DNA from: Porphyromonas sp.
GTDB lineage: Bacteria; Bacteroidota; Bacteroidia; Bacteroidales; Porphyromonadaceae
Assembly (NCBI RefSeq): GCF_030529325.1
Contig: NZ_JAUMXC010000001.1
Coordinates: forward strand, 52,342-116,341
Reading direction: 5' to 3'
Length of the DNA: 64,000 nucleotides
A model generated the notes under the pieces. It saw only the letters and a list, made by a program, of their open reading frames with translations. It did no database searches and was not told the DNA's origin. Positions within the stretch are counted from its first letter, which is position 1. The number at the start of each line of letters is the position of its first letter. The position numbers and the translations under genes are program-made. This document shows, in pieces, positions 1,963 through 46,930 of this stretch.

Positions 1963-2302
1963 TTTCAAAATACAATTCTCTTTACAATGGCTCTTACCTC
2001 TACCGACCAAATTATATGGCAAGCGGGTAACAGTCTGCGTTAATAATCAATATTCAAAAACCTTTCACATCACAAAAATAAAGATTTTGAATGGCTTTGC
2101 ACAATAAAGAGACAAATATTTAATGAAAAAAATGTCTAATATTGGCAGAAATACAGATTAATGACGATATTATCGAGAGACAGAGTCTTTTATCAATAAA
2201 AACGGGCACTAATCCTCCCCTATCTTCCTTACCCACGAGCGCATATAGACACCTTGACAACCCATCCAGAAGAACGTCATCTTATCCTCTAAAATATTTT
2301 GA

Positions 2303-2310
2303 TAAATTTG
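2303..2310 (+). promoter_or_regulatory. Bacteroidetes-type -7 promoter box TAAATTTG (TAnnTTTG) about 40 nt upstream of the Hint-protein ATG
   Basis: Matches the sigma-ABfr -7 consensus TAnnTTTG; no other ORF in the 330 bp intergenic region. Confidence 0.3.
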
Positions 2311-2349
2311 CCGTATCAGATAGTGCAAACTCAAAAAATCAATACAACT

Positions 2350-3567
2350 ATGAAACGGGTTTACATCATTTTAGCCATACTCTTATCCATCCAGACAGGA
2401 TATGCCCAGATTAAGGAAATGCATCCTACTCAGACCGAACGATTGGATCTGAGCGCTAAGGGAGAAAAAGCTTTTGAAGCAAAGGCCAAAGCCATACAAA
2501 AGATCTACGAAAAACTGGAGAAAAAGGGTGGTTCGGAAGCCCTAACCAAAAAGGAAAGAGAACTCCTTGACAGCTACGACGACACAATAGACAGTTACTG
2601 GTCCATCATCGGGAGCGGATGTAGCTGGTACTGTGGAGGAGGTACCAAGAGCGTCACGGCCTCAAGCCACCTCAAGGCTCAAGGCTCAATAAACTATCTA
2701 CCCGACAACGCTCATGACCTTAACTATAAGAACGCATGGGCAGAAGGAGTCCCGGGCTACGGGATCGGAGAATACCTGTTGTACACCTTCGATGCAACAG
2801 CTCCACGGATCAATCAGATAATTGTAGTCAATGGTTATGTCAAAAGTAAGACCGCTTGGGAAAACAACTCCAGAGTCAAAAAACTGAAAGTATACATCAA
2901 CAATAAACCCTATGCCATACTCAACCTCAAAGACATAAGAGGATCTCAGACATTCGATGTCGAGCCCATAGGCAACACTCCGAGAGAGAACGAGGAGGAG
3001 ATGCAAAAGAAGGGAGACTGGACAATGAAGTTTGAGATATTGGAAGTATATAAGGGCGCAAAGTATGATGACGTCATCATATCGGAGATCTATTTCGATG
3101 GGTTGGATGTACACTGCCTTGCCAAGGGGACTCCGGTCCTTATGGCGGATATGTCTGAGAAAAACATCGAAGACTTGGAGATCGGCGACCTTGTTGCGTA
3201 TATAGATGGCAAGGAGTTCAAAACCGCACGTATAGAAAAACTTGCAAAAGCAACACATCACGGACTCGTCACCTACAGATTTGAGAGTGGTAGAAGCATA
3301 ACAACAACACAGGATCATCCATTCAGAATAGAAACAAAAGGTTGGTCATCCCTAAGCCCCGAAAAATCGGCTAGGTATAGAGGATTTGAAAAAGTAAGAA
3401 AGGTCGAAATAGGAGACGAATTCGCGACAGCATCAGGCAGAGACCGATTGATTGCAATCGAGCACCTGAACGAGACTCAAGAGACCTACACTATTTCGAA
3501 AATGAACAATGGAGATCACTTCATCGCCAATGGGCTGATCGTAGGGATCGAAGAACTCAACGAATAA
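2350..3567 (+). CDS. Secreted protein: signal peptide + coiled-coil/Lys-rich region + F5/8 type C (discoidin) domain + C-terminal Hint (Hedgehog/intein-like, BIL-type) domain
   Basis: MKRVYIILAILLSIQTGYAQ signal; VTASSHL...AWAEG...ISEIYFDG discoidin-like motifs; Hint block A C-LAKGTPVLMADMS (Cys codon 3115-3117) and block B TTTQDHPF (His codon 3316-3318). The protein ends right after the Hint domain. Confidence 0.6.
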   Translation: MKRVYIILAILLSIQTGYAQIKEMHPTQTERLDLSAKGEKAFEAKAKAIQKIYEKLEKKGGSEALTKKERELLDSYDDTIDSYWSIIGSGCSWYCGGGTKSVTASSHLKAQGSINYLPDNAHDLNYKNAWAEGVPGYGIGEYLLYTFDATAPRINQIIVVNGYVKSKTAWENNSRVKKLKVYINNKPYAILNLKDIRGSQTFDVEPIGNTPRENEEEMQKKGDWTMKFEILEVYKGAKYDDVIISEIYFDGLDVHCLAKGTPVLMADMSEKNIEDLEIGDLVAYIDGKEFKTARIEKLAKATHHGLVTYRFESGRSITTTQDHPFRIETKGWSSLSPEKSARYRGFEKVRKVEIGDEFATASGRDRLIAIEHLNETQETYTISKMNNGDHFIANGLIVGIEELNE

Positions 3568-3589
3568 ATCACACCGACAAAAATAATCA

Positions 3590-3630
3590 AAGGGGTGTTG
3601 CTGATACGAACTCGGCAGCACCCCTTTTGC
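3590..3630 (+). terminator. Rho-independent terminator-like hairpin after the Hint-protein gene
   Basis: AGGGGTGTTGCTG...CAGCACCCCT stem followed by TTTT. Confidence 0.45.
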
Positions 3631-3741
3631 ATAAACAAGATAATATCAGACAATTAAAATCCAAATCTCCACCTCATCGCTCTCCACAATCCGAACCTTC
3701 CCACAAAGGGTCAAAGAAAAGATAAAGAACCTCCCAAATCA

Positions 3742-3803
3742 ATGTGTCTAACTTGATGAATGAAGTTGTCTAACTTGATGCATCAAGTTAGACAACCTTT
3801 TTT
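3742..3803 (+). repeat. Copy 1 of a ~60 bp structured repeat family (GTCTAACTTGA direct units + 14 bp perfect hairpin GTTGTCTAACTTGA-tgca-TCAAGTTAGACAAC + T6)
   Basis: Near-identical copies at 10582, 22312, 49024 (inverted) and 57736. The apparent 61 aa ORF 3760-3945 is an artefact of the repeat sequence. Confidence 0.8.
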
Positions 3804-4044
3804 CGACAGGCTGAAACCTTTTTTTACAACGATGAACAAGGGTGTGAAGGAGGCTTATCAGGAAAAGGGTTATGTTTTCTTGATTTATCAGCAGGAGATC
3901 CCCCAAAATGACAAGATTTTGCACAGTCTACACATCAAAATCTAGGAAAGACAATCGGAAAGTCAGAAGCCCCTGCAAAACATTCAAAAAAACATGCTAA
4001 ATAATTTGGAATAGCCAAAAGTAACATCGAACTTTGTACAGAAA

Positions 4045-5403
4045 ATGACCGCATTAGCACCCTTAGCAGAAAGAATGCGCCCACAGACTCTTGACTCCTA
4101 TGTAGGGCAGGAGCACTTGGTAGCGCCGGGAGCACCACTCTATGAGATGCTCTCCGGGAGTATTTTGCGCTCATTTATCCTATGGGGTCCTCCCGGAGTA
4201 GGCAAAACAACGCTGGCTCACATCATATCCAAAACCCTTGGTCTCCCCTTTTACACGCTTAGTGCCGTATCATCCGGAGTGAAAGATGTAAGAGATGTCA
4301 TCAGGGTTGCAGAGGATAGCAAAGGGGGCTTATTTTCGGGTGGTACACCGATCTTGTTTATAGATGAAATCCATCGATTCAACAAATCCCAACAAGACTC
4401 CCTTCTTCATGCTGTAGAGAGAGGGGTTGTGACACTCGTGGGAGCAACCACAGAAAATCCTTCGTTTGAGATCATCCGTCCGCTCTTGTCCAGGTGTCGC
4501 GTATTTGTCCTGAAATCTCTGGACGCCAAGGCAATGAGACAGTTGTTGGACAAAACTATCGAGACAGACACGCTGATGCAGGCGTTTGACTTTGAGATAG
4601 TAGAAACGGATGCGTTGTTTGCTGCAGCAGCAGGCGATGCCCGAAAGTTGCTCAACATCATAGAACTGCTCACCCTCACGCCTGAAGCTCAAAAAACGAA
4701 GAAGGTAGTCATCTCCAACGAAAATGTAGCAAAACATCTCCAACAAAATCCGGCTGTCTATGACAAAGGCGGTGAGATGCACTATGACATCATCTCGGCG
4801 TTTATAAAATCTGTGAGAGGGAGTCATCCCGACGCTGCGCTGTATTGGTTGGCTCGGATGATAGAGGGAGGAGAAGATCCGAAGTTTATTGCGAGACGTT
4901 TGGTGATCTTGGCAAGTGAAGATATAGGATTGGCTAATCCCAATGCTCTCCTCATAGCTCAGGCCGCATTTGATGCAATAGAAAAAATCGGCTGGCCTGA
5001 AGGTCGCATTTCTCTCTCTGAAGCAACAATATACCTGGCAACAAGCCCCAAAAGCAACAGTGCTTATGAAGCCATAGACAAGGCCTTGGCTTACGTACGT
5101 GCCAACCCGGCAGCACCTGTCCCCATGCATCTGCGAAATGCTCCGACAGAGCTGATGTCAGAATTGGGCTATGGAGCCGGATATATCTATCCCCATCTGT
5201 ACAAAGGTAACTATGCCCCTCAACAATATCTCCCCGAAGAAGTAAAGGGGATAACGTTTTGGGAGCCGGCAGATAATATACAAGAGACTCGTTTGATGGA
5301 GTTTGTGAATAGCAGGAGACAGATGTATGGAGAGAAAACCGACATTTTGTCCCCAAGATCTCAACAAATGCACAGGGAGTCTGACCCAAATATCGAGAAC
5401 TAA
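4045..5403 (+). CDS. rarA: Replication-associated recombination protein A (AAA+ ATPase RarA/MgsA)
   Basis: N-terminus [19 protein letters not shown] and Walker [10 protein letters not shown], like E. coli RarA. Confidence 0.9.
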
Positions 5404-8978: not shown

Positions 8979-10421
8979 ATGGAAACCAATAAAGTAAGGG
9001 TCGAAAGCGACCTTCTTGGTTCAAGAGAGCTTCCCAACAGCGTACTCTATGGGGTACAGACTCTCAGAGCGATGGACAACTTCAACATCTCTCCATTCAA
9101 GCTCAACAACTATCCCCTATTCATTCACGGCTTGGCTTGGACCAAGATGGGTGCGGCAAGAGCAAACGGTAAGCTCGGTGTCATCACACACGAGTGTGCT
9201 CAAGCTATCGAAAAGGCATGCCAAGAACTTCTCGAAGGCAAGCACCACGAGCACTTCCCCATCGACATGATCCAAGGAGGTGCAGGTACATCTACAAACA
9301 TGAATGCCAACGAGGTCATTGCCAACAGAGCACTTGAGATCCTCGGACACGAACGTGGACACTACAAGCACTGCTCTCCTAACGACCACGTCAACGCATC
9401 TCAGTCTACCAACGATGCTTACCCAACAGCCATCCACTTGGGTCTCTACGCTACTCACCTCCGCGTGATCGAGCATATGGAGTCGTTTGTGGCGGCCTTG
9501 AGAGTGAAGGGTAAAGAGTTTGCACATGTCATCAAGATGGGTCGCACACAGCTACAAGATGCTGTGCCTATGACACTTGGTCAGACATTCAACGGTTTTG
9601 CTTCGATCATCGAAGAAGAGATCCCTAACCTCCGCCACGCCGCAGATCAACTCCTCACCATCAACATGGGTGCTACTGCTATCGGTACAGGTATCTGTGC
9701 CGTACCGGGCTACGCAGAAGAGTGCACAAAGGCTATCAAGGAGATCACCGGATGGGACATCAAGCTTGCCGAAGACCTCGTAGGTGCGACATCAGACACA
9801 TCACACCTCATAGGCTACTCACAAGCCCTCAAGCGTATTGCAGTAAAGATCAGCAAAATCAGCAATGACCTCCGTCTCCTCTCATCAGGCCCACGTTGTG
9901 GTCTCGGTGAGATCGAGCTTCCTGCACGCCAACCCGGATCATCTATCATGCCGGGTAAGGTCAACCCTGTGATCCCCGAAGTAGCATCTCAGATCGCATA
10001 CAAGATCATGGGTAACGACGTGTGTGTCACCATGGCCGGCGAATGTGCACAGATGGAGCTCAACGCGATGGAGCCGGTCATGGCGCAGTGCTGTTTCGAG
10101 TCATCTGACTACCTCACGGTCGGTCTTGACACCCTCCGTGATCTATGTATCGTAGGCATCAAGGCGAACGAAGAGCGTTGCCGCAGACACGTCAGCGAAA
10201 GTCTCGGTATCGTCACTGCTCTCAACCCATACATCGGGTACAAGAACTCGACAAAGATCGCGAAGGAAGCCGTTGCGACAGGTCGCCCTATCACAGAGAT
10301 CGTCATCGAAAAGGGCATCCTCACTCAGGCAGAACTGGATATGATCCTCGCTCCTGAAAACATGATCAAGCCTGTACACCTTGACATCAAGCAATTGGAT
10401 AACCTCGGATACGAGGAATAA
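8979..10421 (+). CDS. aspA: Aspartate ammonia-lyase
   Basis: N-terminus collinear with E. coli AspA (RVESDLLGSRELP...YGVQTLRAMDNF) and fumarate-lyase signature GSSIMPGKVNPV. Confidence 0.85.
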   Translation: METNKVRVESDLLGSRELPNSVLYGVQTLRAMDNFNISPFKLNNYPLFIHGLAWTKMGAARANGKLGVITHECAQAIEKACQELLEGKHHEHFPIDMIQGGAGTSTNMNANEVIANRALEILGHERGHYKHCSPNDHVNASQSTNDAYPTAIHLGLYATHLRVIEHMESFVAALRVKGKEFAHVIKMGRTQLQDAVPMTLGQTFNGFASIIEEEIPNLRHAADQLLTINMGATAIGTGICAVPGYAEECTKAIKEITGWDIKLAEDLVGATSDTSHLIGYSQALKRIAVKISKISNDLRLLSSGPRCGLGEIELPARQPGSSIMPGKVNPVIPEVASQIAYKIMGNDVCVTMAGECAQMELNAMEPVMAQCCFESSDYLTVGLDTLRDLCIVGIKANEERCRRHVSESLGIVTALNPYIGYKNSTKIAKEAVATGRPITEIVIEKGILTQAELDMILAPENMIKPVHLDIKQLDNLGYEE

Positions 10422-21070: not shown

Positions 21071-21817
21071 TCAGTCAAGCCCTTTAAATTCTTGATCAAA
21101 CTTGATATCACGAACATTGTAAAACACATCAGACTCATCAGTAAGGAAGTATTGGTTATTTTTATCCATGTTATTCCTATCGTACTTGGTGAGTTTCACT
21201 CTTGCAGGCTTATCACCACCATTGTTGATAATATACAAGTTGAGGTAAGGAATACCATTGTTACTCTTGGTGTACTGACGTCCCTCATCAACTTTGACAC
21301 GGATGGTATAAGGCTTGGTAGGATTATATCCATTATCATAGCGGGCACCGTCGAGGTATGCTGCATACTGATATGGTTTCTTATGTCCACCCTTAAGCTT
21401 ATTCATAAGAGAGCCTTGTGGATGTATATAATCCTTGGTACCCATGATTTCGAGACACTGTTGACCGATCTGAGGATTACGGCGATACATTTCGAGTGCC
21501 ATGATATTGAGTGCTGCCGCCCCGTGAGGAGTCTTTGCGATCTGATTGCGCACATCTCTAAACTCTTCCACAGACGCAGGAAATCTGTTAAATGATACAG
21601 AACCGCTCTGTCCCGAAACAAAGTCTGTAGGATTGATCTCTCCACTGAGACTTAACGAAAGTGCAGGACGAGTATCGGTATTAGGCTGATCCGAATTATC
21701 CTTGCTTGATGTATCGGGCTTTTTAGCCTCAGGATTTCCGGAACCGCAAGCAACGATTGATAATGATACGACTGCCATAATAGCAAGAAGAGAAAAGTGC
21801 AGTCTGTTTTTCTTCAT
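21071..21817 (-). CDS. Hypothetical lipoprotein
   Basis: Signal peptide + lipobox LSIVAC; Ser/Asp/Thr-rich linker; no recognisable domain. Confidence 0.5.
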   Translation of the reverse strand: MKKNRLHFSLLAIMAVVSLSIVACGSGNPEAKKPDTSSKDNSDQPNTDTRPALSLSLSGEINPTDFVSGQSGSVSFNRFPASVEEFRDVRNQIAKTPHGAAALNIMALEMYRRNPQIGQQCLEIMGTKDYIHPQGSLMNKLKGGHKKPYQYAAYLDGARYDNGYNPTKPYTIRVKVDEGRQYTKSNNGIPYLNLYIINNGGDKPARVKLTKYDRNNMDKNNQYFLTDESDVFYNVRDIKFDQEFKGLD

Positions 21818-22088
21818 GTTAGTTTTTTAATGTATTAAACAGTTAATAAAATAGATAGTATACAGTTTTGATTGATCGATCATACTTGCCAATCAGCAAA
21901 CACAAATGCCCGACACAGTCAAGAGTATAAATCTCCGGACTGAAAGAAATCGCACAAAAAGCTCCGCTCTAAAACTCTAATAAGAATTGAAAACCTCCCA
22001 ATCCTCCCCCAAGTTTCATGTGGTTTTTATGTATCAACCGCAAAGGTATAAAAAACAAAATTAAACTTAACACACACCTCAAACATTA

Positions 22089-22232
22089 CAGGGCAACCGC
22101 ATCAAAAATCTCGATAAAATACAAGTTGCTGATTTTCAAATGATTGCATTTTAGGATTATATTCAAAGATAAAGAATGCACTCAAAACCATGATTGATAA
22201 TCAGGCACTTACATTTTGATGCGATTGCCCTG
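22089..22232. mobile_element. 144 bp MITE with 19 bp terminal inverted repeats (CAGGGCAACCGCATCAAAA / rc CAGGGCAATCGCATCAAAA) and perfect 9 bp target-site duplication CAAACATTA (22080-22088 and 22233-22241)
   Basis: IRs and TSD read directly from the sequence; the same terminus CAGGGCAACCGCATCAA flanks the transposase remnant at 40495. Confidence 0.75.
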
Positions 22233-22311
22233 CAAACATTACCCCACCTTGAGTCAGAGAGTTTTTTTCTGAATAGGGTATCAAGAATGAGATGTACATC
22301 TCTCGAAATCG

Positions 22312-22373
22312 ATATGCCTACCTTGAGAAATGAAGTTGTCTAACTTGACGCATCAAGTTAGACAACCTTTTTC
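22312..22373 (+). repeat. Copy 3 of the structured repeat family (hairpin GTTGTCTAACTTGA-cgca-TCAAGTTAGACAAC + T5)
   Basis: Near-identical to copies 1/2/4/5; sits 193 bp upstream of the aminotransferase ATG. Confidence 0.8.
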
Positions 22374-22507
22374 AAGGCCTCAAAAGACATTGAAGCTCAA
22401 GGGGGTCGAAACATTTTGCCATTGAGCTATTACCCCACCATTAGTGAAATTTTCGGGTCTATCCGCCCAATACTTATAACAATATATGCATGACTGTTAT
22501 TTTTACG

Positions 22508-22515
22508 TATCTTTG
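22508..22515 (+). promoter_or_regulatory. -7 promoter box TATCTTTG upstream of the aminotransferase gene
   Basis: Matches TAnnTTTG about 50 nt upstream of ATG 22566. Confidence 0.3.
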
Positions 22516-22565
22516 TAAGTCGAAGGGCAAATAAACCTCTACAATTACAATAAGGAATTTTTACG

Positions 22566-23594
22566 ATGCAAAAGAAAAAGGTGAGATCATCCGACACCTC
22601 GGACATGAAGCAGGTGGTGGATTTTAGTACTGTATTGTGGCATGGTGCAGATCTGAGCAAACTCAAAATGCACCTTATAGATAATATTGACCTGATAAGT
22701 ACCAGACCCGAACGCTCGGCTGATACGATCTCACGTCTCTTGTCTCGACGTATCGAAGTACGTGAGGATGAACTATTGGTAACCTCCGGAAGTACCGGGG
22801 CAATACATCTCCTCGCTAAAAGCTCTTCGGGAAGCAAATCCTTGATCATTGCCCCCACCCATCAGGAGTTTAGGACAGCCTTGAACAAGGCGGGACATAC
22901 AGTCACAGAGATAGAAGGTTGCGCAGATGTGAGCAAACTGCCTCTTGACGGTATCCAATATTGCTGGCTATGCACACCAAACATCACTGATGGAAGATTG
23001 TGGAGTCGTGCCTCCCTCATTTCTTTGATCAAAGAAAATCCGAATGTCACTTTCATAGTGGACATCTCCATGGCTTCATTCGTCGTTGAGGAAACTCTCC
23101 GCCCATCTGATGTCAAAACATACAAAAATTTGATCATTGTGTCCTCTTTCTCCAAGGCTTACAATATCCCCGGCATGAGAGTCGGTTACATTGTAGCTCG
23201 TAAAAACATCATTACAGATCTAAAAGAAAAGAGAACGCCTTGCACAATCGGAGCATTAGCAGTCGAAGCCATACGTTTTATCTTGATCCATCCGGCACAA
23301 TTTACACTGCCTGCACGTAAATGGCATCGTAGTGCGACAGAACTGAAAAACAGACTTACAGCAATTGATGGAATAGAAATATTACCCTCAGCCACTGCTT
23401 TTTTTGTAGTACGCCTTCTTGACCGAGACGCTGTCAAGCTCAACGAATACCTCATGGAGGAATACAACATGAAGGTCGGAGTCTGCACAGATGGCTTGGA
23501 TCTCAAACCTAACGAATTCAGGGTAAGTGCCCTTGACAACGAATCAAACAAGGCGTTGGCAGAAGCTATTTCAAACTGGATGAAAGACAGATAA
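22566..23594 (+). CDS. PLP-dependent class I/II aminotransferase (CobD threonine-phosphate decarboxylase / HisC-like)
   Basis: PLP-lysine motif SFSKAYNIPGMRVGY; about 340 aa. Confidence 0.7.
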   Translation: MQKKKVRSSDTSDMKQVVDFSTVLWHGADLSKLKMHLIDNIDLISTRPERSADTISRLLSRRIEVREDELLVTSGSTGAIHLLAKSSSGSKSLIIAPTHQEFRTALNKAGHTVTEIEGCADVSKLPLDGIQYCWLCTPNITDGRLWSRASLISLIKENPNVTFIVDISMASFVVEETLRPSDVKTYKNLIIVSSFSKAYNIPGMRVGYIVARKNIITDLKEKRTPCTIGALAVEAIRFILIHPAQFTLPARKWHRSATELKNRLTAIDGIEILPSATAFFVVRLLDRDAVKLNEYLMEEYNMKVGVCTDGLDLKPNEFRVSALDNESNKALAEAISNWMKDR

Positions 23595-40467: not shown

Positions 40468-40494
40468 AAGGTGTAAAGGCAACCCACATCCACC

Positions 40495-40721
40495 AGGGCA
40501 ACCGCATCAAATCTTTAGTATCTTTTTGAGATAGTCCATATTCAGAGCGGCTTTGAACAGCCTCTTCCGTAAGGATAGCTTGTCTTTATGTTGCGAGACA
40601 ATGGCTAAGGCGAACTTTCTTAGCGTGTTTAGATTAGTCGCTGAATAATCCTTACGAGCACGGCAAGCATTTTCTCTAAAGGTTACATCCAAATGCCAGT
40701 GCAGGGCAGCCGCATCAAGCA
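40495..40721 (-). pseudogene. DDE_Tnp_1 (IS4/IS5-superfamily) transposase C-terminal remnant with the terminal IR
   Basis: Minus-strand reading ...AALHWHLDVTFRENACRARKDYSATNLNTLRKFALAI... is the classic transposase C-terminal HWxLDVxFxED...R...A.NLA.LR..AL motif. It is followed by the stop and the terminal repeat CAGGGCAACCGCATCAA (40495-40511), and a second near-copy CAGGGCAGCCGCATCAAG (40704-40721) lies at the upstream boundary where an in-frame TAG ends the homology. Confidence 0.65.
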
Positions 40722-46764: not shown

Positions 46765-46842
46765 TGTACGTTTTTTTTAAGATTAATGATTAATACATTG
46801 TTTATTCTCTATGGGCTACTTATTTCTTCCGAAATAAATCTG

Positions 46843-46930
46843 CGGAGAGAGCGGGATTCGAACCCGCGATACGCTTTTGGCGTATACACGCTTTCCAGGC
46901 GTGCCTCTTCAGCCACTCGAGCATCTCTCC
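46843..46930 (-). tRNA. tRNA-Ser (anticodon GGA), long variable arm; CCA not encoded
   Basis: Minus-strand GGAGAGATGCTCGAGTGG...CACGC-CTGGAAA-GCGTG...GCGGGTTCGAATCCCGCTCTCTCCG: 7 bp acceptor stem, T-loop GGTTCGAATCC, anticodon loop CT-GGA-AA. Confidence 0.85.

Follow-up and report, generated by a model that had tools for sequence, protein, structure and literature searches.

The MITEs published for Porphyromonas gingivalis are MITE239, MITE464/MITEPgRS, MITE700 and BrickBuilt (PMC2575886, PMC4596501), and all four carry IS5-family terminal inverted repeats (TIRs; GAGACC... or ACGTCA...) matching ISPg1/3/4/9 (PMC4596501, Table 2). They are mobilised in trans by resident IS elements, the same general design that we ascribe to the family described here. 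An "ISAs1 family transposase" has been annotated in P. gingivalis W50 (PMC10470040), and in the papers searched no description of an ISAs1-derived MITE in Porphyromonas was found.

The window analysed here, a stretch of 64,000 nucleotides of Porphyromonas sp. DNA, contains a 144-bp AT-rich segment without an ORF at 22089-22232. This segment is very probably an ISAs1-derived MITE that was inserted via a transposase acting in trans and that belongs to a Porphyromonas-wide family of 144/145-bp elements. The family shares with the published P. gingivalis MITEs the genus, the short, TIR-bounded, non-coding design and the low copy number, while it differs from them in its CAGGGCAAC termini (TIR CAGGGCAACCGC...), its length of 144-145 bp and its 9- or 10-bp duplications; none of the published P. 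gingivalis MITEs has CAGGGCAAC ends.

Anatomy of the element and its insertion site

The element and its immediate flanks consist of the following features.

22080-22088: left copy of the 9-bp target-site duplication CAAACATTA, adjoining the element
22089-22232, minus strand: 144-bp non-autonomous MITE, in all likelihood ISAs1-derived
22089-22107, plus strand: left terminal inverted repeat CAGGGCAACCGCATCAAAA, abutting the direct repeat
22214-22232, minus strand: right terminal inverted repeat, CAGGGCAATCGCATCAAAA on the minus strand, with one mismatch to the left arm
22233-22241: right copy of the 9-bp target-site duplication CAAACATTA, adjoining the element

Analysis of the flanks revealed that CAAACATTA has two occurrences in the 64 kb, both at the element edges; the chance of a 9/9 flanking match at two fixed positions is ~4^-9 = 4e-6. 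The 19-bp TIRs match at 18/19 positions, the mismatch in the right arm being an A at 22224 where the family consensus has G, and the 19-bp arms of that consensus are perfect. With up to three mismatches allowed, the terminus pattern had an expectation of 0.01 in shuffled sequence, against four occurrences in the window. The direct repeat of the window appears to be 10 bp long, as the left inverted repeat also starts with C; alleles with and without the element in P. gingivalis (see below) set the boundaries at CAGGG...CCCTG, and therefore the window duplication is 9 bp. Relative to the family consensus the window copy has one substitution in the right repeat and its duplication is perfect, and it appears to have arrived by transposition and not by vertical inheritance of an older insertion.

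The GC content of the MITE is 34.7% and that of its interior 29%, against 44% for the window, and stop codons occur in 6/6 frames. A tblastn search of the MITE detected no transposase similarity, and the interior holds no remnant of a transposase gene. As single-stranded DNA the element folds as one long hairpin (-25.3 kcal/mol, z -4.2); RNAalifold on the family indicated that the TIR stem is the sole conserved structure and found no covariation in the interior. At TIR position 9 of the window MITE, the C variant is that of the right end (IRR) and the T variant that of the left end (IRL) of a full-length IS of Porphyromonas sp. COT-239 (L050); judged by these ends the window MITE is inverted relative to the parent IS, with an IRR-type end on the left and an IRL-type end on the right.

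The left neighbour of the MITE is a DUF6935 lipoprotein gene (21071-21817, minus strand) and the right neighbour a CobD-like class I/II aminotransferase gene (22566-23594, plus strand). A first-pass annotation of this DNA had proposed a 144-bp element with 19-bp TIRs carrying one mismatch, a perfect 9-bp duplication and an AT-rich, non-coding interior, placed between divergent lipoprotein and aminotransferase genes, and it was correct on all of these points and in all coordinates.

The proteins encoded by the two neighbours are identical to the Porphyromonas sp. entries WP_303169083.1 and WP_303169084.1. The species is otherwise represented by one MAG contig and two Logan contigs, which show 100% identity to the window throughout their overlap with it. 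The MAG contig (L120, JAUMYX010000044.1) is the only other assembly spanning the whole MITE; Logan contig L122 (SRR24915849) ends at 22129, 41 nt into the element, and L121 begins at 22345. The end of L122 inside the MITE fits an assembly-graph branch and hints at further copies in the sample.

The empty-site comparison that had been proposed as a check gave no empty allele for the window's own locus, either in metagenome contigs or in relatives. The predicted empty-site 25-mer (junction ACACACCTCAAACATTACCCCACCTTG) had 0 matches in the metagenome contigs, and exact-protein look-ups for an empty allele of this site returned identical same-species assemblies only. The closest named relative is P. 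cangingivalis, with 80% aminotransferase identity. In P. cangingivalis and three other relatives (L144-L148) the aminotransferase gene is preceded by gpsA and a gene for a class II aminoacyl-tRNA synthetase. At the nucleotide level these loci resemble the window only from 22498 onward, ~70 bp ahead of the aminotransferase start codon, and therefore no empty site can be read from them. The aminotransferase-LysE-FKBP-FKBP-pdxJ block is kept in these relatives and DUF6935-dxr-rseP is replaced upstream.

Several further observations were made on the surrounding DNA. A hairpin at 22335-22366 (-21.6 kcal/mol, z -5.6), with a perfect stem of 14 bp and a loop of 4 nt, precedes CTTTTTC on the plus strand; it is terminator-like, yet it lies between divergent genes and no annotated gene ends there. 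This stem may be a leftover of an earlier gene order or part of a small transcript. The sequence ATTACCCCACC occurs twice, at 22238-22248 and 22429-22439, 191 bp apart, and its first copy overlaps the right target duplication. A candidate second, degenerate MITE end at 22416-22445 was rejected, since its local alignment score of 24 was not significant against a shuffle maximum of 28. An Rfam search of 21700-22700 gave nothing above threshold, including no cobalamin riboswitch before the CobD-like gene. A tRNA-Ser(GGA) gene at 46842-46930 on the minus strand of the window explains its only other match to the fetched loci (L026, 90% over 90 bp).

ISAs1 termini and full-length elements

A decayed IS with the same kind of terminus is found elsewhere in the window, between a TPR-protein gene and a 293-aa ORF.

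40494-40512, plus strand: terminus (IRR) of a truncated ISAs1-family IS, with one mismatch to the MITE terminus
40507-40704, minus strand: relic of an ISAs1 transposase gene, consisting of the last 65 codons and the TGA stop
40702-40720, plus strand: second, degenerate ISAs1-type terminus CAGGGCAGCCGCATCAAGC, in direct orientation and abutting the truncation point of the relic

The MITE terminus CAGGGCAACCGCATCAAA also ends the relic at 40494-40704, and the first 18 nt of CAGGGCAACCGCATCAAAA are identical both to the relic terminus at 40494 and to the IRR of a full-length IS (L050:3173-3190). The TGA stop of the relic transposase gene falls within the inverted repeat. The translated relic matches profile positions 279-314 of 314 in NF033564 (ISAs1 family transposase) with E 7e-10, and is 94% identical over 36 residues to the transposase of the full-length IS. 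At the nucleotide level it is 89% identical over 211 bp to an IS end in P. gulae DSM 15663 (L067, a partial copy), in which the transposase gene continues beyond the matching region. No partner end was found downstream of the terminus at 40702-40720, and the arrangement at 40494-40720 probably reflects a nested insertion followed by a deletion. The window contains one copy of the MITE and no intact transposase. The search for other termini and for a full-length IS, which the first-pass annotation had suggested, thus turned up two more termini and the ISAs1 relic in the window but no intact IS there.

The full-length IS of Porphyromonas sp. COT-239 has the same ends, measures 1189 bp (L050:2002-3190) and encodes a 346-aa protein that matches NF033564 with E 7e-102. 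Species-representative genomes were scanned for CAGGGCAAYCGCATCAAA, and at least 119 loci matched, in Bacteroidota, Chloroflexota, Proteobacteria and others. The terminus pairs in genome contigs (n=61) comprised full-length elements (1172-1343 bp) and numerous shorter ones (135-443 bp), and perfect 9- or 10-bp duplications were common in both size classes. Four other full-length elements, from other phyla, gave NF033564 matches with E 1e-84 to 1e-126. NF033564 was the best and the sole above-threshold family model for the transposases of the full-length elements, whose Pfam domains are DDE_Tnp_1_assoc and DDE_Tnp_1 (PF01609).

The ISAs1 family is characterised by CAGGG ends and by duplications of up to ~10 bp, and both the CAGGG termini and the 9- or 10-bp duplications were measured directly on the paired elements. 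IS4-family elements such as IS10 and IS50 also make a 9-bp duplication, and PF01609 is also a domain of IS4-type enzymes. The termini of the MITE, however, are the ends of elements that encode ISAs1-model transposases, and the parent family is therefore ISAs1 and not IS4. The IS4-family origin put forward in the first-pass annotation consequently holds at the superfamily level only, through the PF01609 DDE domain, but not at the level of the family, where both the termini and the associated transposase are those of ISAs1.

Compared with the ISAs1 elements of COT-239 and P. gulae, the window MITE has the same 18-19-bp terminus CAGGGCAAYCGCATCAAA and a duplication in the same 9-10-bp range, but it lacks a transposase gene and is about one-eighth as long. 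The match between the MITE and the sequenced full-length IS is limited to the TIR and ~25 subterminal bases; judged from this alignment, its interior is not an obvious deletion derivative of that IS. The short elements with ISAs1 termini from other Bacteroidales, Chloroflexota, Proteobacteria and Verrucomicrobiota have the same termini, 9-10-bp duplications and non-autonomous design as the window MITE, while their interiors are unrelated to it. These short elements look like independent births of MITEs from one IS family. Recurrent short size classes with the 18-nt terminus, for example of 193 bp and 266 bp, were seen in Anaerolineae and Phototrophicaceae MAGs, often with several such elements per genome.

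A probable course of events can be set out on this basis. Two 19-bp ISAs1 ends would have been kept around an AT-rich, ORF-free interior, and the ISAs1 DDE transposase of a full-length IS located elsewhere would recognise both ends in trans. This transposase would excise or copy the MITE and insert it at a staggered 9-bp cut, here into the spacer that separates the DUF6935 lipoprotein gene from the CobD-like aminotransferase gene, and repair of the staggered cut would have generated the CAAACATTA duplication.

Copies of the family at other sites

A scan of metagenome contigs with the subterminal stretch of the right end yielded 21 loci. At ten of the 21 the element measures 144/145 bp and has 87-94% identity to the window copy across its whole length, two (L125 and L142) carry 126-bp deletion variants of this form, and seven belong to a second subfamily with ~72% identity. 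The flanks of the metagenome copies are unrelated to those of the window. Site-specific duplications were identified for family copies (GACCTTTGCA, TTGTTTATT, GAAAACACT and ACAGAAAAT), one further copy has a 9-mer duplication with a single mismatch, and the duplication is missing at some copies. No empty sites for the first metagenome copies were found among the fetched loci. Exact-protein look-ups identified the hosts as P. gingivalis, P. endodontalis and uncultured Porphyromonas. P. gingivalis is represented by three contigs whose proteins are identical to ATCC 33277 entries, and its copies are 92-94% identical to the window copy.

The copies of the second subfamily (L124, L130, L133, L136, L138, L140 and L143) have mutually inverted flanks, in the order GGCTCCCC, element, GGGGRGCC; this subfamily either has longer TIRs or nests inside another palindromic repeat. 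Among copies that lack a duplication, P. endodontalis-like contigs (L141, L123, L125 and L142) show three pairings of flanks, namely A-MITE-B, C-MITE-D and A-MITE(126 bp)-D; L132 and L134 have a common left flank and different right flanks. These flank combinations suggest recombination between MITE copies in different strains. The single 11-kb metagenome contig L127 carries a decayed ISAs1 IS at 938-2039, a TraG/VirD4-type coupling protein with a YWFCY domain at ~2100-4090 and a MITE copy at 9969-10113, an arrangement that suggests that a conjugative element carries the MITE from one species to another.

In P. gingivalis, a copy downstream of sufS is present in 6/6 fetched loci, all in one orientation. 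This copy (L126:2290-2460, L137:1048-1216) sits right at the end of a GAGACCTTTGCA sequence, which is an IS5/BrickBuilt-type TIR (PMC4596501). The 10-bp duplication GACCTTTGCA at the sufS site belongs to that TIR, so that the sufS-site copy is a MITE nested in the end of another element.

Polymorphism was seen at a second P. gingivalis site, which is located upstream of an Asp-Al_Ex transporter gene. The filled allele was found at two loci (L158 and L161), in which the MITE is flanked on both sides by GAATATGCA and the sequence reads ...TGGAATATGCA-(145-bp MITE)-GAATATGCATCCTGC.... The empty allele was found at 14 loci, including strain AJW4 (CP011996.1, complete genome), which have one GAATATGCA and no element and read ...TGGAATATGCATCCTGC... 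(for example L160). The difference between the filled and the empty sequence is exactly 145+9 bp, which is direct proof that members of the family transpose as whole units and generate a 9-bp duplication. In L158 and L161 only 2 bp separate the insertion (~2050-2235) from an older, solo terminus of ISAs1-like type, GAAATGCGATTGCCCTG, which is present in all P. gingivalis strains compared. This placement, like that of the window relic, hints that ISAs1-type elements tend to land beside earlier copies.

These results bear on whether the short form is itself mobile. A full-length ISAs1 element could have inserted at the window site and lost its interior in place, the 144-bp form never having moved; the duplication and the ends would then look alike, and a decayed ISAs1 IS is present in the same window. 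Such an in-situ remnant is nevertheless very improbable, as the 144/145-bp form, at 87-94% identity, stands at several sites with its own duplications, is either there in full or missing altogether at a P. gingivalis site, and in the window has no transposase-gene remnant in its interior. Since the same 144/145-bp form occurs at several sites and is present or absent as a unit, the short form itself transposes. The call of a MITE made in the first-pass annotation is thus borne out by the copies at other sites, the cognate IS and the filled/empty polymorphism of the family.

Promoter boxes and possible regulatory effects

A sigma-70 promoter scan is uninformative for Bacteroidota. Against the Bacteroidetes -7 consensus TAnnTTTG, four matches were obtained.

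22041 and 22056, minus strand: -7 box matches, 26-48 bp left of the insertion, directed toward the lipoprotein gene
22164-22171, minus strand: TATCTTTG, candidate -7 box inside the MITE, directed toward the lipoprotein gene
22508, plus strand: TATCTTTG, -7 box match, 50 nt ahead of the aminotransferase start, past the MITE by 276 bp

The TATCTTTG box at 22508 is likely the core promoter of the aminotransferase gene and, by its position, is intact. The boxes at 22041 and 22056 are the best candidate promoters of the lipoprotein gene, and the insertion lies just upstream of them. The MITE may influence the expression of either neighbour, a possibility raised in the first-pass annotation. The TATCTTTG box within the MITE is kept across the subfamily-1 copies; no properly spaced -33 TTTG was seen, and the orientation of the MITE relative to neighbouring genes at other sites is inconsistent.

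The 144-bp size, the inverted repeats, the site upstream of a lipoprotein gene and the internal TAnnTTTG box are also features of an invertible promoter segment, that is, a Bacteroidales DNA inversion switch in which the repeats would be recombinase sites and the lipoprotein gene would be turned on and off. We consider this highly improbable. ISAs1 termini make up the inverted repeats, such a switch would not be expected to have a direct repeat at its flanks, and no recombinase gene is found nearby, the neighbours being dxr, rseP, LysE and FKBP. In addition, no inverted segment was seen in the assemblies, L120 spanning the element in the same orientation and L122 having the same left junction, and the P. 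gingivalis sufS-site copies are in one orientation in 6/6 cases. A chance palindrome or bidirectional terminator hairpin with a fortuitous flanking repeat, to which the long hairpin fold and the place between two genes could be ascribed, can be dismissed for practical purposes, as the chance expectation is negligible, homologous copies exist elsewhere and, the flanking genes being divergent, no terminator is needed.

The ISAs1-derived MITE identified here is an element of a known kind, and the value added is a modest one, namely a MITE family of P. gingivalis and related species that varies between strains and had so far gone unremarked. For the window locus the consequence is small, since this is one small intergenic insertion that spares the proximal promoter of the downstream gene. 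Different phyla share the conserved 18-bp ISAs1 terminus, from which MITEs have originated repeatedly, and therefore a simple pattern can annotate such MITEs. Repeats of this kind break short-read assemblies, as illustrated by the Logan contig that ends in the MITE.

It is a speculative and rather unlikely idea that the 144/145-bp family may move between Porphyromonas species on conjugative elements and act as a portable promoter; movement between species comes into consideration because of the 92-94% identity between the P. gingivalis copies and the window copy and because of the coupling protein on a MITE-bearing contig. If this were true, the TATCTTTG box would rewire adjacent genes in a strain-specific manner, the targets being the DUF6935 lipoprotein gene here and the Asp-Al_Ex transporter gene in P. 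gingivalis. For P. gingivalis, a heavily studied pathogen, the polymorphic site provides a natural filled/empty pair for regulatory tests and a possible typing marker.
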